A stretch of DNA of 64,000 bases, from assembly GCF_030013595.1 (NCBI RefSeq), contig NZ_CP122769.1. One strand, 5' to 3'. Made by a program: the position numbers and the translations under genes. A model generated the notes under the pieces. It ran no database searches, was not told the DNA's origin, and saw only the letters and a list, made by a program, of their open reading frames with translations. The DNA comes from Escherichia coli. Lineage in GTDB: Bacteria > Pseudomonadota > Gammaproteobacteria > Enterobacterales > Enterobacteriaceae. Position 1 is the first letter of the stretch. Every line of letters starts with the position of its first letter. This document shows positions 4,775 through 57,299 of the stretch, one piece after another.

Positions 4775-6744
<1,970 letters not shown>

Positions 6745-9252: not shown

Positions 9253-9276
9253 GGCACGGTTTCCGTGCCTTTTTTT
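9253..9276 (+). terminator. Rho-independent terminator
   Basis: ggcacgg-ttt-ccgtgcc followed by T7. Confidence 0.65.
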
Positions 9277-9475
9277 GCCTCGCTTACAAGCGTCTACTCC
9301 TCTTCTACCTATCCCACCTTACATCACCACTTAAAATCTATCTTTCTAATTCCATTATCCTTTTCGTAGCCTCTAATGCTCTGGTATGAACATACTCTTT
9401 AAACTCAAAAAAGTGCTATTAACGAAAAAAAATCCCTAAAGAGATTTGTATACTGTTCTCAACCAAGGAGAGCTC

Positions 9476-9751
9476 ATGAATGAACTAAAATCCAAAAACG
9501 AGAACAGTACCAAAAGCAACTTTCCCCCGGTTGATAATCAGTTTTGCTTTTACCATGTTGATTTCAGCATAGAACGACTACTTTCTACGGCCGAGGATCT
9601 CCAGCTTGAGTACATCTTCCAGAAACCTGGAAGTGAAGTAAGAAAGGATTTGGTTGAGCGATTTGAACGTGGAGAGCGCTTTGTTACAGCTTCACACTGT
9701 GACAATTTCTGTGAAATCCTTGGTTGTCAAGGCCATCAGGAAAATGCATAA
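9476..9751 (+). CDS. hypothetical protein
   Basis: ORF with internal ATG at 9476 (track start 9446); no recognisable motif. Confidence 0.4.
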   Translation: MNELKSKNENSTKSNFPPVDNQFCFYHVDFSIERLLSTAEDLQLEYIFQKPGSEVRKDLVERFERGERFVTASHCDNFCEILGCQGHQENA

Positions 9752-9795
9752 ACCCATAAACCTACATTTCCACTTTTAAGGATGTTCACTAAAGA

Positions 9796-10386
9796 ATGAT
9801 TGGAGAAAGTATTTTTGACTGGGTAATTTACGGAATATCCATTTTGATATTTGCCTCAGCACTAATTGAAGGAAAGACAACTCGCTACCCAGCACTTTTT
9901 TTCTATGGGAGTTTAATTTTAATGTTAATCCTGATAGTTGCTGGAGGCCTTAACTGGTGGTTCTACAGGTCAAAATATGGCGCAGTAATCGTTATCTTCA
10001 CAGTGGTTTCTTTACTGATGACTCGATTCCGCCTGGTCATATATAAATTAAGATTAAGAAAGTTAGTTTCAGAGATCAGATTTCGTATAAAAACGGGTTT
10101 TCGTATAATTCTTGTTTTGTCGGATAATGAGGATGAGCGTAATGTTCTGCTGTCTATGCTTAGCAACGTATTGCCAGAGCAAACGCTTATTCACACGCGT
10201 GATGCTCTCGGACCTCATTCAGGGCCTATCCTAAAAGCTCTTGAGCTACATCATCAACAGGGAACAGGTTACATACTCGTCTGTGAACAACAAATCTCAG
10301 CGCGTACGTGGTTGAGTATCGTAGAAAATGGGAAACCTGATACATCTATAGCTGTTAATTTTCATTCGATCCCAGAAATGGAGTGA
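9796..10386 (+). CDS. hypothetical membrane protein (about 3 N-terminal TM helices)
   Basis: Hydrophobic segments ISILIFASALI, LILMLILIVAGGL, AVIVIFTVVSLL. Confidence 0.5.
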   Translation: MIGESIFDWVIYGISILIFASALIEGKTTRYPALFFYGSLILMLILIVAGGLNWWFYRSKYGAVIVIFTVVSLLMTRFRLVIYKLRLRKLVSEIRFRIKTGFRIILVLSDNEDERNVLLSMLSNVLPEQTLIHTRDALGPHSGPILKALELHHQQGTGYILVCEQQISARTWLSIVENGKPDTSIAVNFHSIPEME

Positions 10387-10393
10387 TTTTTCA

Positions 10394-10651
10394 ATGAGTA
10401 GAACCGTTTCACAAAGTGTCACAGAAGATTGTCTTTTTGATACCCGCACACAAGTCAGATTACAACTAAGTCGAAGCGTTCATAAAACGCTGGCATCTGC
10501 TAAAGAAATTTTACAGGGAAGGGGGGTTGATTCGGTCTCTATTGAAGATCTTGTGCGAGCCTGTCTTGAAGAGAACCAGCCAATTGATCTCGCCTCACTT
10601 TACCTTGAAAATCTCTTAAAACAGAAAGGTACCAGCATTTGCGATTTTTAG
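10394..10651 (+). CDS. hypothetical protein
   Basis: 85-aa ORF, 8-nt spacing from upstream gene. Confidence 0.4.
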   Translation: MSRTVSQSVTEDCLFDTRTQVRLQLSRSVHKTLASAKEILQGRGVDSVSIEDLVRACLEENQPIDLASLYLENLLKQKGTSICDF

Positions 10652-10724
10652 TGTTTTCAAACCTATTAGATAAAATGCCGGTTGTGTTTATATAACATCA
10701 ATAATTTCATGCAACAGGTAAAAC

Positions 10725-11261
10725 ATGAGTACTCAAAAGCAACTTTCCAGAACAACCGGCACTGAACGTATGTTTAAGGAAGAGCTGGCGTTATCCTTAA
10801 TTTGTTGGGTTTTCACCAGTCCATTTACCAACTGGACCGATAAAGTCTTCAGTGGTATTGAAGTTCCGTCTGAAGGACCGTCAACATTACTGGGTGAGGC
10901 TGAAAAATTCTTTCGTTTTGTCGTTAATGAAGAAGGCTACGACGCAGGAAGGGCTGCTCTTGGTCTTGACCTATGTTGTTTTTCACTTCCGTCGTGTTTG
11001 TTCCCGGACGCTGCCCTGTCTGAGGAAGAGGTTATGAGTAAGTTAACCGGAGAAGTTATCCATGGGATTCTTCTTTCCTTACCTGAATTTATTGATATGC
11101 CAGAAGTGCTCGCTTACCAGGTCAGGGATGAAATTCTTGCTTTTAACACTCGCTGTGGAGACGGGATCTTTCATGGTTGGAACACGGCTTCAGAATTGTG
11201 GAAGTTTGAAATCTTTCCCCGCACCACCATCATGATGCAGCATACTTCGGCAATACATTAA
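10725..11261 (+). CDS. hypothetical protein
   Basis: 178-aa ORF. Confidence 0.45.
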   Translation: MSTQKQLSRTTGTERMFKEELALSLICWVFTSPFTNWTDKVFSGIEVPSEGPSTLLGEAEKFFRFVVNEEGYDAGRAALGLDLCCFSLPSCLFPDAALSEEEVMSKLTGEVIHGILLSLPEFIDMPEVLAYQVRDEILAFNTRCGDGIFHGWNTASELWKFEIFPRTTIMMQHTSAIH

Positions 11262-11277
11262 AATTAGGCGGGGCAGA

Positions 11278-11724
11278 ATGCATAAAAAACTTTTTCTTCT
11301 CGAATGGAAACCCTGTCAGAGCCGCGTATGGGCCGGTTGGATGGCCCTGTGGTTGACTATCAGTTTTCTGATGTTATCTGCCTTGCTTATGACAGATCAT
11401 CTCCTGAACAAAGTCATCCTGCCGCCAACATGGTTGTTGATCTGGTTTTCGCCAATGCTGGGGTTTTTGATAAAAGTTCGCGTCGTCGAAACTCAACATT
11501 TCCTGGAGCATGACCTCTGTGTTGCAGGTTTCTCTTTTTACCGCTGGAAGAGGTTAGTTTCTCCCGGGCTTTGGTCAGTTGACTGTATAAATGGTCGTTT
11601 TCGCCTCAATCGGATCACCCAGGTGGGTAAGACTATCCACTATCCATGGCGTCTCCATTATCATCCTTTGTTCATGAGCCCTATCGAACATAAATCGCAT
11701 GCTGTGAAAGCTGTTTCAAAATGA
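11278..11724 (+). CDS. hypothetical membrane protein
   Basis: Hydrophobic N-terminal half (WMALWLTISFLMLSALLM). Confidence 0.4.
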   Translation: MHKKLFLLEWKPCQSRVWAGWMALWLTISFLMLSALLMTDHLLNKVILPPTWLLIWFSPMLGFLIKVRVVETQHFLEHDLCVAGFSFYRWKRLVSPGLWSVDCINGRFRLNRITQVGKTIHYPWRLHYHPLFMSPIEHKSHAVKAVSK

Positions 11725-11796
11725 CTTCTTTAGAGGTTTACATGACATTTATGTTCTGCAAGGTCAGCCAGGGCAGCAAAATTGATTTGAAATAAC

Positions 11797-12777
11797 ATGA
11801 GCCTGGAGAAACGTATGAGTTATGACGATTTGCCCTATTTTCGTGACCAGATTCTGGAACGTATCGACTCGCTTAAGTGTTTTCTTTCGAACACCCCCCC
11901 GCTGATGGCAAACCTGATGACTGTCTCCACCGTATCTCGAACAGAAGAGCGACTGAAGCAGGTTAAACCCATCAGGGTTAGTGTTAAAGACGATGCTTCG
12001 GTTGAGGAAATTATTCAGGCACTTACTGACATCTGTGTGGATGACATAGAGTCATTAAGTCATGATTCCACCAAAGTGACCACTAAATACCCGGGTCTTA
12101 TCATTGTCCCAGAAAGAGCAGATCTTCTCGAAAGCTTGATCACATCTATAAATGAAGCAAAAAATGATTTTGCTGCGGCAATGAGGCGTATCGATAATAA
12201 AAAGAATGTCCGTTTTGATAAAGTGCACAAGAAGCTCCCGGGCCTTGTCGCTATGCACTCAACAAGAAATGTCCTTTTCATCAAGTCCCAGCTTAAAAAA
12301 GTTACTTTTTCATGGCGGCTAAACCGAAACCAGGAAGTTAAAACAGCAGAGCAACTTGTGAGTTTGTTGGAGCGCAGGAGAGCCTCAGAAGTAAAAAATG
12401 TAGCAACTACCAATTTGAATGTCGTGTCTAATATCGATAAGGCTTTACACCGTCTTGAATTTCACCCACTGAAGCAGGGCGAATCTTATCGCCTTTGTCG
12501 AACTAACTCTTTCCCTGTTCCGATTGCTCACATTTTTGCATTTAGGCCTGAAGGGCAGGAACGAAACGGGAATAAATATGCTGAGACTGATTATTCAGTA
12601 GTAAAAGCATCCTTGCCCATTTTCGCAGCAGGCAACATACCTCAATTAAAAACGCTCTCTGACTGGGCTCCTGAAAACAGCCAGGGCCCGTCCAACCAAC
12701 GGAAGCTGAGCCTGAAATATACAGAACTCGTGCCGGGGGCTGAGCTGGGCATTTTCATTGTCAGCCCCGAAAATTAA
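11797..12777 (+). CDS. Tus-like replication terminus-binding protein homologue
   Basis: Segment FDKVHKKLPGLVAMHSTRNVLFIK..FSWRLNRN recalls the E. coli Tus region [29 protein letters not shown] (from memory); similar length. Confidence 0.5.
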   Translation: MSLEKRMSYDDLPYFRDQILERIDSLKCFLSNTPPLMANLMTVSTVSRTEERLKQVKPIRVSVKDDASVEEIIQALTDICVDDIESLSHDSTKVTTKYPGLIIVPERADLLESLITSINEAKNDFAAAMRRIDNKKNVRFDKVHKKLPGLVAMHSTRNVLFIKSQLKKVTFSWRLNRNQEVKTAEQLVSLLERRRASEVKNVATTNLNVVSNIDKALHRLEFHPLKQGESYRLCRTNSFPVPIAHIFAFRPEGQERNGNKYAETDYSVVKASLPIFAAGNIPQLKTLSDWAPENSQGPSNQRKLSLKYTELVPGAELGIFIVSPEN

Positions 12778-12786
12778 GGAACAACA

Positions 12787-13692
12787 ATGCAATGGATTTC
12801 CACAGCCAGCCAGAAAATCGATGAGCGTCTCTATCGTGTCTGCGTCTGGGTAAAAAAATATCACGCTGATGCGATTAACCGCGTTGTGCTTACCGTTGAT
12901 CTAAGTAAAGCCCGACATGACCCTGACGAGGACCAGGTAAGAGCAGAGCTGCTGTGCGGCCATTATTTTTTGCTTCGTAAGGAAAACGCTTCGAACTCTG
13001 CGCCTGACGATCAAAAGTTTGCTTTCCTGCCTGACGGGCGCAATCTGTGTTGGCAGACCGCAACCCCGGTGCTTCAGCATCTCCTGCTCAATAAAAACGT
13101 TCCTGAGTCGCTGAGGTTGCTTACGGACTACATACATATGCGTCTGGCCAGGCTGACAATGGTACCAATGTCCGGAACCATCATGAACGAGGCTCTGCTG
13201 GACAGCATCAGCTGGGTTAAGGTGGATTTGACCTACTTCTGGCAGTATGAACAGCTCAGCTCTCATCTGGGACCCATCCAGATAACCCACAAGGCACTAG
13301 TACGCTTCGGGCATCTGGCAAAGAATGATGAAAACTCCAGTGCCATAAGAATCCTGCGTCAGCGTCTGTCTTCAGAATTCTTACAAGAATTTCAGATGGC
13401 TGAGGATGAGCTAAAGCGCAAACAGTCGTTGATGGGCACCATGGACGTGAAAATGCTGTTTCATGCTCATTACCCCAGCCAGAAGATGCTGGTGGCTCGA
13501 TATAAAAATGGTTGGGTAATGGTGGATTGTTTTCTGTTTCATCATACCAAACCTAAGAAAAAAGCAAAAAACAAAACTACTGTGGCTAAGCCTCAACTTA
13601 AAGAGACTAAAAGAGAAGGGAGTGAAAATGGAACTGGGCATTATGGTGTGCATCGTGTTGTTACTCTCCGTGGCGGCGGCGTGGATCAGTAA
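12787..13692 (+). CDS. hypothetical protein
   Basis: 301-aa ORF with Lys-rich C-terminus. Confidence 0.5.
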   Translation: MQWISTASQKIDERLYRVCVWVKKYHADAINRVVLTVDLSKARHDPDEDQVRAELLCGHYFLLRKENASNSAPDDQKFAFLPDGRNLCWQTATPVLQHLLLNKNVPESLRLLTDYIHMRLARLTMVPMSGTIMNEALLDSISWVKVDLTYFWQYEQLSSHLGPIQITHKALVRFGHLAKNDENSSAIRILRQRLSSEFLQEFQMAEDELKRKQSLMGTMDVKMLFHAHYPSQKMLVARYKNGWVMVDCFLFHHTKPKKKAKNKTTVAKPQLKETKREGSENGTGHYGVHRVVTLRGGGVDQ

Positions 13693-13972
13693 TAAGACAG
13701 TTGATTTGCTCGAAAGATTCTATTTCAAGCGTCCGCTGAGCATGGAGTACGCGGCATGGCTACGTGTAATGTGTGCAGGCTTGTTATTGGTTTTTATTCA
13801 GGTTGCTCCACAATTTACACTTCTGTATACCCTTAAACTTGTCACGCTTATTAATCTTGGAATCCAGACAATGAAATTAAATGGCGTGTACAAATATAAA
13901 AGAACGGGAATTTTGCCTCCGGGAGGGGCACTCTCTAATCTCACCAGACTTAACCCGTTCAAGAAAAAATAA
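13628..13972 (+). CDS. small hypothetical membrane protein
   Basis: Two hydrophobic helices (MVCIVLLLSVAAAWI, MCAGLLLVFIQ). Confidence 0.35.
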   Translation: MELGIMVCIVLLLSVAAAWISNKTVDLLERFYFKRPLSMEYAAWLRVMCAGLLLVFIQVAPQFTLLYTLKLVTLINLGIQTMKLNGVYKYKRTGILPPGGALSNLTRLNPFKKK

Positions 13973-13993: not shown

Positions 13994-15184
13994 CTATTCA
14001 TCAAAGGCATTTCGCATAAGCTTGATCATTGCTTTTTTACCAGCTTCAATATTACGAATGTAGCGCATAACCATTTCTTCATTCGACCAGTTCCCCATTT
14101 CCATAATCTGTGGTAGCGAGTAACCTTCAATATTTAGCTGTATCGCTCCGCCTACACGAACGCTGTGCCCTGTCCAGTAACGAGTTTTAGTCTCATTTGG
14201 ATAAAGCTCATTCCACATCTCTTTAAATGCTCGTAAAAGGGAATTTTTGCTGAGCATACCGGCATCGTCCACAGTGTCTTCTTCATCTTCATCTTCATCG
14301 TTCAGAAGACTTTGCTTAGCACGATAGGGTAGGTTATGCCTTTTAAGAAGTTCAGATAGCTCATTCCCCTTACTCCGAAGCTTCCAGCCGGGTGGCATAT
14401 AGCCTGTATCATGGAAATTTACGGCCTGGAAAAGGAATTCATCCGGATGACTGTGCTGATCCATTTTCACGAGGTTCATCAATCTCAAGAGGCAGTTAGT
14501 TAACTGACGTGTCAGCCGGTAGGTAAGAAGTGTACTAATGTTCGTTTTTGTACGGTATACCGTCAGGTTAAATTCACCGGTCATACTATCCAGAGACAGA
14601 TCTTTCAGACGTATACGTCGAATTTCGGATGAACGGAGCAGTGTTTCAAAGCCTGTCCAGATCAGGCACAGGTCACGAAGTTTACGAACTGAGTTTGTAG
14701 TACTGCGTAACTTTATCAGAGCCTTGAGATCGCCAATAAGAAAGGGAGTTGCCTGTTTAGTCGTCTTTCGCTTCCGGGCTTCCGATTGTTTTAAGGCTTC
14801 CAGCATGTACCATGCTTCAGACGTAATAATCCCGGGCAGGTTAAGCCCTTTTTTATGGATACTATTTAAGGCCTGAAGACAGCTGTTTATGCTGCTTCGT
14901 GACAATTTGCCTTCAAGATGCCCCATAAACGCAAGCAGAGCGTCCTCAGACACGGGGAGCGAACTTACTGGCCAGTCTGTATGCAACCGGGCATTCGCCA
15001 GATACCATTCGTTCCATACTCGTAGCCAGTGCAGATAGGTTTTAGCAGTGTTGTATCTCAGATGGGAAAAGTAACGGATCAAGCGTGAAAGCTGTTTATC
15101 ATGGTTGCCGAACGTTTCCAGCTGCTGATGCAATTCGCTTTCCGAAAACTGTCTGATCACTGATTGATTCTTCATCCTGCTCAC
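13994..15184 (-). CDS. tyrosine site-specific recombinase (phage integrase family)
   Basis: C-terminal catalytic region GHSVRVGGA..LPQIMEMGNWSNEEMVMRYIRN (R..H..R..Y signature). Confidence 0.75.
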   Translation of the reverse strand: MSRMKNQSVIRQFSESELHQQLETFGNHDKQLSRLIRYFSHLRYNTAKTYLHWLRVWNEWYLANARLHTDWPVSSLPVSEDALLAFMGHLEGKLSRSSINSCLQALNSIHKKGLNLPGIITSEAWYMLEALKQSEARKRKTTKQATPFLIGDLKALIKLRSTTNSVRKLRDLCLIWTGFETLLRSSEIRRIRLKDLSLDSMTGEFNLTVYRTKTNISTLLTYRLTRQLTNCLLRLMNLVKMDQHSHPDEFLFQAVNFHDTGYMPPGWKLRSKGNELSELLKRHNLPYRAKQSLLNDEDEDEEDTVDDAGMLSKNSLLRAFKEMWNELYPNETKTRYWTGHSVRVGGAIQLNIEGYSLPQIMEMGNWSNEEMVMRYIRNIEAGKKAMIKLMRNAFDE

Positions 15185-15345: not shown

Positions 15346-15558
15346 ATGTCTGACACAAAGCAGTCTTATTTAATGAAATTCCGTAAGTGTAGTTCGTTCG
15401 AAACGCTCGAAAAAGTATTTGAAAGGTTATGTGAAAAAAACTCGGGTGTCGCCTCTCTTGAAATTTCTGGTGCTTATGATCATCGTAAAGCCGAACTGAC
15501 AATGAAAAAGTTATATGACAAAGTTCCTGCGAGTGTGTGGACCTTTGTTCGCGAGTAA
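15346..15558 (+). CDS. hha: Hha/YmoA-family expression modulator
   Basis: YLMKFRKCSSFETLEKVFE ... DHRKAELTMKKLYDKVPASVW closely matches Hha (..LRRC..ETLERV.. ADHRLAELTMNKLYDKIP..VW). Confidence 0.85.
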   Translation: MSDTKQSYLMKFRKCSSFETLEKVFERLCEKNSGVASLEISGAYDHRKAELTMKKLYDKVPASVWTFVRE

Positions 15559-20333: not shown

Positions 20334-21370
20334 CCTCTCCCTCTGTTTACGTCGAAGTTAGTGTTTCCGCCATCATTGCTGAATGACAGACCTGTTTCAC
20401 ACCACGGGCAGATCACGTCATCCGGGCCGTCAATGCACAGCAATTTTCCGCATGAGCACAGGGCAAACGCACTGGCATTACCGCAGTGAGGGCAACCCGG
20501 TACGCCATGCAGTTCGCTGGTGTTTACCTGCAAACCGGTAGCGGTGGCATCTGACCATGCAAAATAGTCCTCATCGATGGGATAGCATCCGGCAATATTA
20601 AAGCTGTTCAGGTTCAGGCTGAAATCGAGCCCGGAAATCCTTGCTGGTGGCCGTTCATACTTCATCAGATACGGACGACGGGTCTTGCTGCAACGGCCGG
20701 TAAGCGTAACGCAGTTTTCGTCGTACGCTTTTACTGGCTCGTCCTTGGCCAGCCGGACTATGTATTCAGTCTGGCTGAGCTCAGGTTGTTTGTCGTCTCC
20801 GACGCTGCGGCTGTGCGCCGTAACCGAGGCTGTGATCCATTTGATGAAGCGGGTAAAGTCCCCTTCCTGAGACTCGGTGAACAGCATGACATTCTCTGTC
20901 AGTTGCCGCAGGGTATTCAGGTCCGCTGACGGCCCCAGGCCAACGGCAATGAGATTCACTTTACTCGCGTAGTGATCCTTCCAGCGCTTCACTTCTGCGG
21001 TTGTGTCGTCAGTCGGACGTCCGTCGGTAAGGAGATACACGACGGGTTTCCAGTCGCCTTTAGCCTCATGAGTGGTTTTTCTGACCTGGGTATCAATTTG
21101 TACGGTCAGCTCACGCAATGCGGCCCCAAGGCTCGTACCGCCGCCAACGGGAAGGCGGGGAGGGTAGAACGAGGCAATTTCGTGAAGAGGTACAATCGTA
21201 CGGGCTACACCGGCAAATGCGATTACCGAAACCCAGGCTGTTTCAAGTGCGTGTGGATCCTTTCTTAAATCTCCGATGATCATTTGCAGACCATCAGTCA
21301 TTTTTTTCAGGTTTTCACCAATCATGGACTCTGAACAGTCCAGGACAAAAAACACGGGAAGGCGTCTCAT
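20330..21370 (-). CDS. TerY-like vWA domain protein with C-terminal zinc ribbon
   Basis: MRRLPVFFVLDCSESM (vWA MIDAS motif) ... CPHCGNASAFALCSCGKLLC..CPWC; start assigned to internal ATG (21370) by analogy with the other TerY paralogues. Confidence 0.75.
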   Translation of the reverse strand: MRRLPVFFVLDCSESMIGENLKKMTDGLQMIIGDLRKDPHALETAWVSVIAFAGVARTIVPLHEIASFYPPRLPVGGGTSLGAALRELTVQIDTQVRKTTHEAKGDWKPVVYLLTDGRPTDDTTAEVKRWKDHYASKVNLIAVGLGPSADLNTLRQLTENVMLFTESQEGDFTRFIKWITASVTAHSRSVGDDKQPELSQTEYIVRLAKDEPVKAYDENCVTLTGRCSKTRRPYLMKYERPPARISGLDFSLNLNSFNIAGCYPIDEDYFAWSDATATGLQVNTSELHGVPGCPHCGNASAFALCSCGKLLCIDGPDDVICPWCETGLSFSNDGGNTNFDVNRGRG

Positions 21371-21455: not shown

Positions 21456-22097
21456 TCAGAGCACCAGCTGGATTTCTGGTGGAGGAGGGGGAAGGGTATC
21501 AGTTCCGTTATTGATCCCCGCGCTTGTGCTGCCGGAAGACACGCTGGCCGATACCCATTTAAAGAAACCTGCAAACGCGGTTGAATCTAGCGTCTCCAGA
21601 GACACAACCTTATCGGTGAGCTGTTTTAAGTGCTCATGGCCTGCTTTAGGACCAACGGCGCAGGCAATGATGGATCCGAATCCCCGGCCGCGAATCGCTT
21701 TTACCGCTTCACCGTACGCCAGGGCATCAGAAGGGGTTCCATCAGTCATCAGGAATACCAGAGGACGCCAGTCTCCTTTTGTATCACCATCTGAGCGACG
21801 TACATCCCGTTCAACACACTGCATCAGACATTCAAGGGCAGCACCGGTGAACGTCCCGCCTGCGCTTGGCACAACGATGTCAGAAAACTGGAAGTCTTCC
21901 AGCGGCGTGAGAGGAATGAACTCACGCGCCTCATTGTCATAGGTGATAATGGAGATATGAACGCTTTCGAGGGCGTAGGGATCCTGGCGAAGAGCGCTAA
22001 GCATCGCCTGAATTCCAACGTTAACGGAATGGATGGACTCACCGCGCATCGAGCCGGATGTGTCGATAACAAGGTAAACAGGCAGGCGGCGCATCAC
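21456..22097 (-). CDS. terY: TerY (vWA domain) tellurite-resistance-associated protein
   Basis: MRRLPVYLVIDTSGSM MIDAS motif; 213 aa. Confidence 0.85.
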   Translation of the reverse strand: MMRRLPVYLVIDTSGSMRGESIHSVNVGIQAMLSALRQDPYALESVHISIITYDNEAREFIPLTPLEDFQFSDIVVPSAGGTFTGAALECLMQCVERDVRRSDGDTKGDWRPLVFLMTDGTPSDALAYGEAVKAIRGRGFGSIIACAVGPKAGHEHLKQLTDKVVSLETLDSTAFAGFFKWVSASVSSGSTSAGINNGTDTLPPPPPEIQLVL

Positions 22098-22757: not shown

Positions 22758-23396
22758 TTATAAGACCACGTTTACTTCTGGCGGCGGCGGTGGCAGGTCT
22801 TCAAGACCGATCACTTCTTTTTTGCTGGACTCCACTTTCTGACTGCCTACCGAAATGCTCGCACTGACCCATTTAAAGAAAGCTTTAATCGTCGAACTGT
22901 CAGCTGTATCGAGCTGAACCACGATTTCAGTGATTTCTTTGAGGACGCTGGTATCGGCATCATGCCCGGCTGCACATGCCACAACAACGCCGGTTCTGGC
23001 CGCTTTAAAGTCATTCAGGCCTTTACGCCAGTCATCATTCGGACTTCCATCCGTCATCAGGAATACAAGGGGACGCCAGTCACCTTTAGTGTCAGCCGTC
23101 GTTTTCTGTACTTCTTTGGCAATGGAGCTGGCCGTCAGGGTAAGCGCTGCGCCAAGAGAGGTGGTGCCGCTGGCTGTTAGTGCTGGCATCTGGAAACTCA
23201 GGAGGTCTGTCAGGGGGACTGCCTGTCGGGCTGAAGAATCAAAGGTGATCACTGACACGTAAGCCGTTTCGAGTGCATACGGATCCTGTTTCAGCGTGGT
23301 AAGCAGCGTCTGAACGCCATTCTTAACCGCTTCGATAGGCTCTCCGTGCATAGAGCCGGACGTGTCGAGTAGCAGATATACGGGTAAGCGTCTCAA
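22758..23396 (-). CDS. terY: TerY (vWA domain) protein; probable TTG start
   Basis: LRRLPVYLLLDTSGSM; TTG at 23396 preceded by aaggaa RBS gives an N-terminus like the paralogues (the ATG-based ORF extends to 23477). Confidence 0.75.
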   Translation of the reverse strand: MRRLPVYLLLDTSGSMHGEPIEAVKNGVQTLLTTLKQDPYALETAYVSVITFDSSARQAVPLTDLLSFQMPALTASGTTSLGAALTLTASSIAKEVQKTTADTKGDWRPLVFLMTDGSPNDDWRKGLNDFKAARTGVVVACAAGHDADTSVLKEITEIVVQLDTADSSTIKAFFKWVSASISVGSQKVESSKKEVIGLEDLPPPPPEVNVVL

Positions 23397-29518: not shown

Positions 29519-30577
29519 TTAATTCAGATGGTTAGAGAGTGATTCCGGGTAAACGATGACATCTGTGATGGATCTCACTGCAACCGGAGAAAAGGTATTT
29601 CTGGCGCTCTGGATCACCGCATCTTCAGACATCAGACCGAGCTTAAAGGCAGCAAACAACCCGGGAAGGTTCACCCCGCTGTGAAGGGTATAACCCACCC
29701 CGCCTGACGGACGCATGTTGGTTTCAAGCAGCACCGGGTTGCCATTCACATCGTTTCGCGTCTGAACATTCACCAGCCCGTCGGCCTTCATAACCCGGGC
29801 GCAGTCACAAGCCAGTTCCCAGGCGCTTCCTTCGTTTACCAGATACTGGATAGCCCCTTCCTTACGGCGTCCCACGGCTGCGAGTATTTCGCCCTTATCC
29901 GCGAGGATATCGACGGAAAATTCCGGGCCTGGCAGGTACGGCATCAAAACAAGGGGTTTAAACGACTCAGAAGCCGATGCTGCTGCAATATACTGTTGCG
30001 GACTGACCAGACGATGTTCGGGATGATTAAAGACGGCCATGGGCGAAGCACTGTCATCAAAGCGCCAGAATCCCATGCCATAGATACCCGTCACCGGCTT
30101 CACGCATACCGGGCTGTCCGAGAACGGCGGGGCCGCGAGGTGCGTCTTTAATTCTGCCAGCGTATTCACCCGCCAGGACGGTACGACCGGGAGCCCGTTT
30201 TGCTCCATAAACTGAGCAAAAGTAACTTTTTCGTCAGCCAGAGTTAACCAGTCGACGCCTGTTGCACCGGTAGTAAGGGTGGCTCCGGTCGATTCAATGG
30301 CTGAACGGTGTTCTTCAAACCACTGGCTGTTACGGCCAGTATGAATATGGTGGATGCCGTAGGTCTGAATGGTTTCCTGAATAAACTGAAGACGTTTTTG
30401 AGGATCTTCAGGTTCAGTCAAAGAATAATCGGCAACGGAAAGAATTTCATGTCTTTCGTTACGGTGGGAGGCAAATACGGTAATAGCAAAATTATTTTTT
30501 TGTGCAAATGATTTTACCCCCTGAATAATATCTCGCTGGGAGGACAAACCTTCCATAAACCAAATTTTCTTGTTCAT
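29519..30577 (-). CDS. ATP-grasp family ligase
   Basis: First gene of the ter-linked operon; ATP-grasp-like C-terminal region (..PVLLETNMRPSGG..). Confidence 0.6.
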   Translation of the reverse strand: MNKKIWFMEGLSSQRDIIQGVKSFAQKNNFAITVFASHRNERHEILSVADYSLTEPEDPQKRLQFIQETIQTYGIHHIHTGRNSQWFEEHRSAIESTGATLTTGATGVDWLTLADEKVTFAQFMEQNGLPVVPSWRVNTLAELKTHLAAPPFSDSPVCVKPVTGIYGMGFWRFDDSASPMAVFNHPEHRLVSPQQYIAAASASESFKPLVLMPYLPGPEFSVDILADKGEILAAVGRRKEGAIQYLVNEGSAWELACDCARVMKADGLVNVQTRNDVNGNPVLLETNMRPSGGVGYTLHSGVNLPGLFAAFKLGLMSEDAVIQSARNTFSPVAVRSITDVIVYPESLSNHLN

Positions 30578-34806: not shown

Positions 34807-34873
34807 TCGAAAAGTAACTTTTCACCCGGGGCTGTTAATGCAGCCCTCATTCAACTGTTTGCAGGAGCTAAAA

Positions 34874-39402: not shown

Positions 39403-39876
39403 CGCGGCCGTTGGAATTGCACCGGCCGGATACGAATTTAACCGACCCCGTGGCGGGAAGGCTATCAGAGTTGCATGTCCTCATCCCTCAAGCCCCCTGC
39501 CAGGCCCCAACGTGCTGTCAGGCTTCGCCTGATTCCCGATCTGCGCCGATACTTCAGCCGATAACTTTTTGTTTTCTTTTTATTTTCTTCCCATCTCCTC
39601 AAAAATCGCGGGCGGCGTGGACAGGGCACCATTGCCGCATGTGGGGTCTTAATAAGGGCAGGGTGGTCAGTTTTGCTCGATGCCAGGGGTAGGCCCTCCC
39701 CTTCATGGGATGAGGACATGCAAGTAAGCTAACTATCTGAAATGACGAAGGTTCATTTGGTGAATGTCGCTTCATATTAATGTTGTGTCACTTATGATCG
39801 TATGTAGCTGGTTGCAAAGAGGAGCGATGAGACAATAAAGTTGTATCGCTAACAAGATTTATGCTGCCACATAGTA

Positions 39877-43611: not shown

Positions 43612-43667
43612 GGGTGATGATGCCAACTTACTGATTTAGTGTATGATGGTGTTTTTGAGGTGCTCCA

Positions 43668-43943
43668 GTGGCTTCTGTTTCTATCAGCTGTCCCTCCTGT
43701 TCAGCTACTGACGGGGTGGTGCGTAACGGCAAAAGCACCGCCGGACATCAGCGCTATCTCTGCTCTCACTGCCGTAAAACATGGCAACTGCAGTTCACTT
43801 ACACCGCTTCTCAACCCGGTACGCACCAGAAAATCATTGATATGGCCATGAATGGCGTTGGATGCCGGGCAACCGCCCGCATTATGGGCGTTGGCCTCAA
43901 CACGATTTTCCGCCATTTAAAAAACTCAGGCCGCAGTCGGTAA
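43668..43943 (+). CDS. insA: IS1 InsA
   Basis: 91 aa, [23 protein letters not shown]. Confidence 0.95.
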
Positions 43944-44365
43944 CCTCGCGCATACAGCCGGGCAGTGACGTCATCGTCTGCGCGGAAATGGACGAACAGT
44001 GGGGATACGTCGGGGCTAAATCGCGCCAGCGCTGGCTGTTTTACGCGTATGACAGGCTCCGGAAGACGGTTGTTGCGCACGTATTCGGTGAACGCACTAT
44101 GGCGACGCTGGGGCGTCTTATGAGCCTGCTGTCACCCTTTGACGTGGTGATATGGATGACGGATGGCTGGCCGCTGTATGAATCCCGCCTGAAGGGAAAG
44201 CTGCACGTAATCAGCAAGCGATATACGCAGCGAATTGAGCGGCATAACCTGAATCTGAGGCAGCACCTGGCACGGCTGGGACGGAAGTCGCTGTCGTTCT
44301 CAAAATCGGTGGAGCTGCATGACAAAGTCATCGGGCATTATCTGAACATAAAACACTATCAATAA
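43862..44365 (+). CDS. insB: IS1 InsB (expressed as InsAB' by -1 frameshift)
   Basis: 167-aa ORF overlapping insA in the -1 frame. Confidence 0.9.
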
Positions 44366-44523
44366 GTTGGAGTCATTACCGGCAGCATCAACTACATCGC
44401 AAGCAGTAAGAGTAAGTGACGATGCCACAGCAAGACACAATAAAGAAAATCTGTTTTTGAACATATTTGAGACCTTTTATAAAAATAAAATAACAGGAGA
44501 ATTGTATCATTAACAGTCTAGTT

Positions 44524-56355: not shown

Positions 56356-56453
56356 TGTATTAAATAAGCATCTCAGGTGCATATATTCCGGTCCTCAACA
56401 AAGGACCGGAGTACAGAGTAGTAAAAACCCGAAATTAAGGTAATGACTCCAAC

Positions 56454-56957
56454 TTATTGATAGTGTTTTATGTTCAGATAATGCCCGATGACTTTGTCAT
56501 GCAGCTCCACCGATTTTGAGAACGACAGCGACTTCCGTCCCAGCCGTGCCAGGTGCTGCCTCAGATTCAGGTTATGCCGCTCAATTCGCTGCGTATATCG
56601 CTTGCTGATTACGTGCAGCTTTCCCTTCAGGCGGGATTCATACAGCGGCCAGCCATCCGTCATCCATATCACCACGTCAAAGGGTGACAGCAGGCTCATA
56701 AGACGCCCCAGCGTCGCCATAGTGCGTTCACCGAATACGTGCGCAACAACCGTCTTCCGGAGCCTGTCATACGCGTAAAACAGCCAGCGCTGGCGCGATT
56801 TAGCCCCGACATAGCCCCACTGTTCGTCCATTTCCGCGCAGACGATGACGTCACTGCCCGGCTGTATGCGCGAGGTTACCGACTGCGGCCTGAGTTTTTT
56901 AAGTGACGTAAAATCGTGTTGAGGCCAACGCCCATAATGCGGGCGGTTGCCCGGCAT
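56454..56957 (-). CDS. insB: IS1 InsB
   Basis: Near-identical to copy 1 InsB. Confidence 0.9.
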
Positions 56958-57151
56958 CCAACGCCATTCATGGCCATATCAATGATTTTCTGGTGCGTAC
57001 CGGGTTGAGAAGCGGTGTAAGTGAACTGCAGTTGCCATGTTTTACGGCAGTGAGAGCAGAGATAGCGCTGATGTCCGGCGGTGCTTTTGCCGTTACGCAC
57101 CACCCCGTCAGTAGCTGAACAGGAGGGACAGCTGATAGAAACAGAAGCCAC
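56876..57151 (-). CDS. insA: IS1 InsA
   Basis: Near-identical to copy 1 InsA (one substitution F to L). Confidence 0.95.
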
Positions 57152-57299
57152 TGGAGCACCTCAAAAACACCATCATACACTAAATCAGTAAGTTGGCAGC
57201 ATCACCGAAATTAATCGGGTTTGAATTGTATAAAGATTAACCGACTCCCGCGCCCAGGAACGATGTAAAATCACGCTTGTCGTGACATTTCTACAATGT

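Follow-up and report, generated by a model that had tools for sequence, protein, structure and literature searches.

The window analysed here is a stretch of 64,000 nucleotides of Escherichia coli DNA (contig NZ_CP122769.1), to which all coordinates refer unless a reference plasmid is named. An uninterrupted open reading frame (ORF) of 326 codons, present in the ORF list of the window at 11797..12777 on the plus strand, had been proposed in an earlier note to encode a plasmid-borne homologue of the replication terminus-binding protein Tus. The ORF is real, while its start is likely to need correction. No Shine-Dalgarno sequence is found upstream of the ATG at 11797, and the second in-frame ATG (position 11815, Met7 of the 326-residue ORF) carries a GGAG Shine-Dalgarno sequence 6 nt upstream and corresponds to the start codon in nine of nine aligned homologues and in the RefSeq protein WP_000119427.1. 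Based on the start shared by the homologues and the GGAG preceding it, 11815 rather than 11797 is probably the true start, giving a likely coding sequence of 320 amino acids at 11815..12777 (+). Both of the peptide segments that had originally suggested Tus are present, and each aligns with a functional part of the E. coli protein. The VHKKLPGL segment (codons at 12223..12246, +) aligns with E. coli VHRHLPGL, which carries the cytosine-pocket residues H144 and G149, and the FSWRLNRN segment (12307..12330, +) aligns with FGWANKH, which carries W172, A173 and K175. A Phe codon at 12214-12216 completes the motif RFxxVHxxLPGL, equivalent to F140, H144, G149 and L150 of the flipped-cytosine pocket of E. 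coli Tus.

The tus-like gene appears to be the sixth member of an eight-gene transcription unit (9476..13972, +), predicted from the co-directional orientation and the tight spacing or overlap of its genes. It is preceded by genes encoding proteins of 91 (9476-9751), 196 (9796-10386), 85 (10394-10651), 178 (10725-11261) and 148 (11278-11724) amino acids and followed by genes encoding proteins of 301 (12787-13692) and 114 (13628-13972) amino acids, all on the plus strand, the 301-residue gene starting 10 nt after the tus stop codon. An intrinsic terminator, GGCACGGTTTCCGTGCC followed by a run of T (9253..9279, +), ends the upstream operon and is conserved in the alignment of the relatives. The word TTTGTATACTGTT (9445..9457, +), located 19 nt upstream of the start codon of the first gene and invariant in six of six lineages, is best read as the -10 element (TATACT) of a putative operon promoter; it was also considered as a Ter site and rejected, as the match needs a 1-nt insertion. 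No convincing signal for a promoter or terminator internal to the eight-gene unit was seen. The operon is followed by a convergent tyrosine recombinase gene (13994..15175, -) and by hha (15346-15558, +). Searches of the partner proteins against Pfam, NCBIfam, PHROG and PADLOC gave no match, the structural model of the 301-residue protein was poor (pLDDT 54) and matched no fold, and a search of the whole window against Rfam returned no matches. Some of the partner proteins are apparently membrane-associated, and the tight association of the gene with such partners is unlike the situation of chromosomal tus.

Over this region, the identity to IncHI2 plasmids carrying an IncHI2A replicon, a MOBH relaxase and an MPF_F system is 100%, and the window represents the IncHI2 backbone. 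The region has matches in 1,417 PLSDB records and in 395 of the 5,426 complete E. coli genomes, where it nearly always resides on a plasmid. An intact Tus of at least 99% identity is encoded in more than 1,100 plasmid records and, by protein search, Tus homologues occur on 2,769 plasmid records, with a separate Tus family of about 25% identity residing on some 1,300 Klebsiella plasmids. In the best-listed of the more than 1,400 matching plasmid records, the gene carries the RefSeq product name 'DNA replication terminus site-binding protein'. Plasmid-borne ('mobile') tus genes have been described, and domestication of chromosomal tus from plasmids has been proposed (Galli et al. 2019, Sci Rep 9:8315). 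Furthermore, a tus gene as well as a 'potential ter site' are mentioned in the paper on the IncHI2 plasmid pSTM6-275 (PMC5923156). In view of the RefSeq annotation and these papers, the presence of tus on the plasmid is already known at the level of annotation and as such adds nothing new; the interest of the gene lies in the question of its function. The literature searches brought up no experimental work on the function of a naturally plasmid-borne Tus; a match for 'plasmid-encoded Tus' referred to an expression vector. The present analysis adds the conservation of the cytosine pocket, the context of an operon and a wider gene module, and a negative result for Ter sites.

Membership of the Tus family was examined by profile, profile-profile and structural comparisons. 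The protein matches the Pfam family PF05472 ('Ter') with a score of 69 bits (E=4.6e-19; gathering cutoff 22 bits), the match covering positions 10-208 of the 296 profile positions. A profile of the plasmid family aligned with E. coli K-12 Tus using hhalign with a probability of 94% (E=1.3e-7) over residues 18-194. The similarity of the single sequence to a PDB Tus chain is marginal (E=0.08), the identity to E. coli Tus is about 18%, and a word-indexed search with E. coli Tus returned close relatives only among the best 120 matches listed. A full-length AlphaFold model, computed from nine family members and of moderate confidence (pLDDT 67, pTM 0.60), was compared with the PDB using Foldseek and retrieved Tus chains only (E=9e-13 to 2e-11), the next match having E=0.85. 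The best match of the model was 1ECR_A (E=9.3e-13, probability 1.00, TM 0.50/0.53) with 334 aligned columns. Since the match extends over that length, the C-terminal domain, which lies beyond the PF05472 match, is also predicted to be Tus-like, and the model thus supports a two-domain Tus fold over the full length of the protein; C-terminal motifs can also be aligned by sequence, PIAH with PIAR and LPIF with TPLI. The alignment to Tus over the DNA-binding core, on which the earlier note had let its proposal stand or fall, is significant, and a plasmid-encoded Tus homologue is borne out by sequence, profile and fold, with the IncHI2A replicon and the MOBH relaxase confirming the plasmid nature of the DNA. 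Orthology with chromosomal Tus is ruled out by the identity of only about 18% and by scores far under the cutoffs of the NCBIfam equivalogs NF002810 (53.1 vs 323 bits) and TIGR02648 (20.9 vs 178.3 bits). The Tus superfamily is small, with 178 clusters at E<=0.001 among 1.84 billion representative proteins, and the IncH-type proteins form a separate deep branch within it, the nearest clusters having 47%, 35% and then at most 25% identity. The plasmid gene thus belongs genuinely to the Tus family, from whose chromosomal members it has diverged deeply.

The residues of E. coli Tus known to be of functional significance, E47, E49, F140, H144, G149 and R198, are tabulated in a review (PMC10331603, Table 1, 2023), according to which F140, H144 and G149 constitute the cytosine-binding pocket of the Tus-Ter lock ('mousetrap'), while E47, E49 and R198 have been implicated in stabilisation of the lock or in slowing of the approaching fork. 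In a multi-family alignment, F140, H144 and G149 are kept in every IncH-type sequence, I79 and L150 in nearly all of them, and E49, K89, W172 and R232 are conserved as well. The full triad is present in just 31 of the 122 aligned full-length sequences, which makes its retention in the IncH-type proteins informative. The Tus of the Raoultella and Klebsiella plasmids, for example, has an altered pocket (F140->S, G149->W) and different DNA-reading strands. The position of E47 is not conserved in the IncH-type proteins (T, R, H or Y), and that of R198 is occupied by V, A, M or K, in a part of the alignment that is uncertain. Substitutions relative to E. coli Tus are also observed at A173 (R), K175 (N), Q250 (E or D) and H253 (Y), next to the retained W172. 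These four residues are base-contacting in E. coli Tus, and their replacement suggests that the target of the plasmid protein is not the E. coli Ter consensus. The simplest reading of the residue pattern is that the lock has been retained and the sequence specificity changed. Across six lineages with saturated synonymous sites, 93 degenerate positions encode an invariant residue, indicating that the protein is under purifying selection.

Taken together with the operon context, these features make it on balance probable, though by no means secure, that the IncHI2 protein is a divergent Tus acting as a monomeric clamp on an asymmetric, non-E. coli site and blocking DnaB-driven forks from one side. 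According to this account, homology predicts that the product of the sixth gene of a conserved eight-gene backbone operon is a DNA-binding monomer of two domains with sequence specificity, clamped on an asymmetric site that differs from the E. coli Ter consensus, and a flipped cytosine held in the intact pocket would complete the lock on forks arriving from the blocked side. The protein is thus expected to bind DNA with polarity and may serve plasmid replication through termination, enforcement of a direction or prevention of over-replication. Counting against this account are the negative outcome of the Ter searches described below, the changes at E47, A173, K175, Q250 and H253 and apparently at R198, the low equivalog scores and marginal pairwise similarity, the dispensability of the gene in natural plasmids, and its association with operon partners that chromosomal tus does not have.

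A plasmid Tus had been taken in the earlier note to imply cognate Ter sites, to be sought as 23-bp sequences, and polar fork arrest. This part of the proposal found no support, as no E. coli-type site above chance was detected in the window, a complete IncHI2 plasmid carries a single core that lacks G6, and a complete IncHI1 plasmid carries none. Searches were performed with a 23-bp weight matrix (PWM) built from TerA-J, on which genuine Ter sites score 22.6-31. The best score in the window was 10.6, below the mean of the shuffled sequences (13.0), so that no site of the E. coli type was recognised, and the patterns GTTGTAAC and GNRNGTTGTAAYKA revealed no enrichment of Ter cores in the window. 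The TerB site of E. coli precedes the tus start by 11 bp, and the GC(6) of Ter is required for permanent fork arrest. No E. coli-type vicinal site with GC(6) adjoins the plasmid tus, nor is there a conserved intergenic site at that place, the latter because most relatives have a tus that overlaps with the gene before it. Opposed Ter sites bracketing a terminus opposite the origin were not found on the IncHI2 plasmid, with its one non-canonical core, or on the IncHI1 plasmid, with none, and no consensus E. coli Ter of the R6K/R1 type lies near the plasmid origin, the sole E. coli-like core being without G6. Other candidates were also rejected. The 'islands' common to the whole IncHI2 and IncHI1 plasmids, for which about 360 shared 14-mers are expected by chance, are mostly chance matches or known repeats (partition repeats and iterons). 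The inverted pair TTGCATGTCCTCATCCC at 39471 and 39707 of the window bounds one contiguous element that is 86% conserved and therefore does not constitute two isolated sites. Given the intact pocket of the cytosine lock, a diverged site at which forks would be arrested with polarity remains plausible.

The failure of the Ter searches is also compatible with recruitment of the Tus fold to some other DNA transaction together with the operon partners, rather than to vegetative termination; examples would be conjugative DNA processing or establishment, multimer resolution with the tyrosine recombinase, or a transcriptional roadblock. Much of the neighbourhood is in line with this explanation. The transfer genes trhN and trhI immediately precede the tus array, the gene order of which is shared by relatives from IncHI1, Citrobacter, Photorhabdus, Lelliottia and metagenomes with a Tus identity of 46-65%, and the tyrosine recombinase and hha are constant neighbours across the H-type plasmids. 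Homologues of the 196-, 178-, 148- and 301-residue proteins (E from 3e-30 to 4e-5) adjoin even the about 25% identical tus of Klebsiella and Raoultella plasmids, which are likewise of the MOBH type, and the wider synteny there comprises traN, a helicase, an AAA ATPase, DUF3150, toprim, the tus module, the recombinase and hha. The 301-residue partner accompanies tus even in distantly related plasmid families and surpasses Tus itself in conservation (77-79% vs 59% between IncHI2 and IncHI1). Against recruitment stands the full conservation of the cytosine-lock pocket, for which we know of no role outside fork arrest. Moreover, the partners have no recognisable domains and the structural model is uninformative, so that no specific alternative process receives positive evidence. 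Recruitment is regarded as a serious but unlikely alternative to the polar clamp. A related and still more tentative suggestion is that Tus, rather than being a stand-alone terminus protein, provides the DNA binding of an ancient module of MOBH-type plasmids that also comprises the 301-residue partner and the small, apparently membrane-associated proteins. In such a module, the cytosine lock would operate on a site unlike that of E. coli and serve a function peculiar to the plasmid, for example origin-proximal direction control or control of conjugative or replacement-strand synthesis. The module might then represent the ancestral plasmid state from which the chromosomal fork traps were domesticated.

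Action of the plasmid Tus on E. coli-type Ter sites, either on a core near oriT or on the Ter sites of the host chromosome, or on both, in which case it would supplement or compete with the host Tus, is considered improbable. This explanation draws on the complete IncHI2 reference plasmid (NZ_CP022165.1, 233 kb), which carries exactly one strong Ter-like core, AATATTTAAGTTGTAACTAATAT, at 156,225 (+). The 'potential ter site' of the pSTM6-275 literature probably corresponds to this core, which is intergenic between a TraF-like gene and trhR, next to Tra1 and about 2 kb from mobI/oriT. The cumulative GC skew of the plasmid climbs between 0 and 60 kb, stays level from 60 to 150 kb and declines from 150 to 233 kb, and tus lies at one shoulder of the plateau and the core at the other, in the orientation that would stop a clockwise fork. 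Gene orientation confounds this pattern, which is suggestive in IncHI2 and has no counterpart in IncHI1. Several observations count against such a role for the core. It has a T in place of the essential G at position 6, and its PWM score of 19.6 is barely above the best shuffled score (19.1). It lies outside the window, about 100 kb from tus and about 62-77 kb from two initiator genes. The core is absent from the syntenic position in three IncHI1-type plasmids, and the complete IncHI1 plasmid pH226B has no Ter-like site by the PWM search. Fuzzy searches revealed no second site related to the core on the IncHI2 or the IncHI1 plasmid, and none near tus. Finally, the presumed base-contacting residues differ from those of E. 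coli Tus.

Across the lineages, a single element within tus or its vicinity is conserved at the DNA level, the 13-bp palindrome AAAAGTTACTTTT, an exact copy of which lies within tus at 12297..12309 over the codons K-K-V-T-F. The word is identical in six lineages whose Tus proteins share 46-65% identity. The same codon is used in all six at nine of the 93 invariant degenerate positions, and the palindrome alone accounts for four of these nine with its K, K, T and F codons; the single change within it (GTT->GTA, in Photorhabdus) falls on its central N. The concentration of codon identity in the palindrome indicates selection on the DNA site itself. Sites of the form (G)AAAAGT[T/A]ACTTTT(C) with at most one mismatch number 47 on the IncHI2 and 50 on the IncHI1 plasmid (0.7-0.8 expected), and the window contains eight (about 0.1 strand-hits expected). 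About 35% of the sites lie outside long ORFs, in the 17-18% of the DNA that such regions make up. The sequence logo is fully symmetric, with flanks devoid of information and no position resembling C(6), and the palindrome is distinct from the partition repeats and the iterons.

That plasmid Tus binds this palindrome, the copy in tus being a 'vicinal' site comparable to TerB beside E. coli tus, is suggested by its standing as the sole conserved DNA element there and by the GTAACT that its reverse complement has in common with the Ter core GTTGTAACTAA. Nevertheless, we hold this to be very unlikely. Some 47-50 symmetric sites per plasmid are a misfit to a monomeric polar barrier and would obstruct replication, and an enrichment of the palindrome is likewise seen in the plasmids of Raoultella and Klebsiella, which encode a very different Tus (about 24-25% identical) and have no copy inside tus. 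The palindrome was rejected as a Ter site for these reasons, and its number, its symmetry and its presence beside very different Tus proteins suggest that it is probably bound by another backbone protein. The HtdA-TrhR/TrhY circuit, which controls most R27 genes, is a plausible candidate for the system acting on the palindrome, though no operator was found for it in the text consulted. The literal palindrome sequence was not found in the plasmid literature searched.

Natural variation shows that tus and the module are dispensable, as truncated alleles are common (P0004, with 212 native residues, has 249 member sequences) and the tus operon of pMS8345A is disrupted by an IS3 element. Though such lesions would be expected of a decaying or functionless remnant, that explanation is the least credible of all, as the full-length protein is conserved across lineages with saturated synonymous sites, is found at no less than 99% identity in the more than 1,100 records mentioned above and keeps its key functional residues.

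IncHI2 plasmids are major carriers of mcr-1 and of multidrug resistance. The combination of an intact lock pocket, changed residues at the base-reading positions, missing consensus Ter sites and conserved partners makes the plasmid Tus a tractable system. Published work treats plasmid-borne tus as the probable origin of the fork trap on the chromosome, and the system could serve to test the hypothesis of 'domestication from plasmids' and show how Ter specificity evolves.

Comparison with the known systems places the plasmid protein close to E. coli Tus in architecture and apart from it in detail. The two are of similar length (320 and 309 amino acids) and, with reference to the PDB entries 1ECR and 2I06, have in common the PF05472 family, the two-domain fold, the pocket residues F140, H144 and G149, and E49, K89, W172 and R232. 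They differ in that E47 and, as far as the uncertain alignment at that position shows, R198 are not conserved in the plasmid protein and A173, K175, Q250 and H253 are replaced, at an overall identity of about 18%. In the fork trap of the E. coli chromosome, TerB is 11 bp from tus, whereas the plasmid gene is embedded in an eight-gene operon with no Ter site found upstream and no opposed Ter clusters detected.

Among enterobacterial plasmids, the theme of fork barriers is shared with R6K and R1/R100. These plasmids carry Ter sites of the E. coli consensus and depend on the Tus of the host; in R1, the origin-adjacent ter sites enforce one direction of replication. The IncHI2 plasmid, in contrast, carries its own divergent Tus and lacks consensus Ter (one non-canonical core, with none in IncHI1). 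The IncHI2 gene is of the same class as the mobile tus genes of Galli et al. (2019) and the tus annotated in pSTM6-275, with no difference in kind. Origin-adjacent tus genes of plasmid ancestry are also known from the secondary chromosomes of Pseudoalteromonas, where Ter sites are only implied (Galli et al. 2019; PMC10331603). The Raoultella and Klebsiella plasmids recall this arrangement, as the synteny described above ends in them at an initiator gene of the RepB type that is 6-7 kb away from tus, a proximity that speaks for the polar clamp. The IncHI2 reference plasmid differs in this respect, its tus being separated from the nearest replication initiator gene by about 56 kb.

A 13-bp palindrome, (G)AAAAGT[T/A]ACTTTT(C), was found to be over-represented about 60-fold or more in the H-type plasmid backbones, with 47 sites carrying no more than one mismatch in the complete IncHI2 plasmid NZ_CP022165.1 and 50 in the complete IncHI1 plasmid NZ_KX129784.1, as compared to the 0.7-0.8 expected. 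Exact copies occur in the window at 12297-12309, inside tus, and at 30218-30230 and 34810-34822, while copies with one mismatch each are located at 2404, 8105, 15748, 18358 and 46565. The palindrome is also enriched in the MOBH-related plasmids of Raoultella and Klebsiella; the accessory resistance region carries none of its sites, and the sites are about two-fold enriched outside the long ORFs. The logo of the palindrome is symmetric, and it is probably the operator for a plasmid-wide dimeric regulator, with the HtdA/TrhR/TrhY regulon being a candidate for the system behind it. No description of the palindrome was found in the searchable literature.

Other repeat families were also observed in the two plasmids, outside the window. 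Arrays of (GG)ATTTAACCCCCTTAATCGCCA lie upstream of parA in both (NZ_CP022165.1, 12.5-15.5 kb; NZ_KX129784.1, 207.9-209.4 kb and 10-240 bp) and presumably constitute the partition centromere, while the iteron-like repeats CATTCATACAAATGCTTTT and AGCATTTGAATGAAT adjoin genes for RepB-family initiators. Both kinds of repeat are conserved in IncHI2 and IncHI1 alike. A GC-rich element of about 250 bp (window 39471-39723), situated downstream of a gene for a 130-aa protein and ending in the perfect 17-bp inverted repeats TTGCATGTCCTCATCCC, shows 86% identity between IncHI2 and IncHI1, well over the approximately 74% of one compared backbone region. The element has no match in Rfam; it may be MITE-like or a structured RNA.

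Three diverged copies of a 62-nt segment (window 21007-21068, 21725-21786 and 23033-23094; 61-82% identity) are located inside terY/VWA-type genes of the tellurite-resistance region and most likely reflect paralogous genes rather than a regulatory repeat. Beyond about 36 kb, the window and NZ_CP022165.1 differ by rearrangement, with the 38-46 kb segment of the window corresponding to 99-114 kb of the plasmid in reverse. Two inverted 768-nt copies, 99% identical and 12 kb apart (43613-44380 and 56439-57206), look like insertion-sequence copies flanking an accessory segment.

The gene beginning 10 nt past tus (window 12787-13692) encodes a 301-aa protein that is more conserved between IncHI2 and IncHI1 than Tus itself (77-79% and 59% identity, respectively). 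It has an invariant ED...ELL...H...P pattern that also occurs in the partners of the distant tus genes from Klebsiella and Raoultella, and could be assigned neither a family nor a fold. The tus module is not essential to plasmid persistence: a truncated allele (P0004), which retains 212 native residues without the C-terminal domain, represents 249 database sequences, and the operon of pMS8345A carries an IS3 insertion immediately upstream of tus (NZ_CP025402.1; locus L027, 953-2166).

The sole E. coli-like Ter core of NZ_CP022165.1, AATATTTAAGTTGTAACTAATAT, lies outside the window on the plus strand at 156,225-156,247 (6225-6247 of locus L012), in the intergenic region between a TraF-like gene and trhR, near oriT. 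It is not conserved in the IncHI1-type plasmids. The core is oriented so that it would block forks heading to higher coordinates; its position 6 is T, as against the essential G of the E. coli Ter site.
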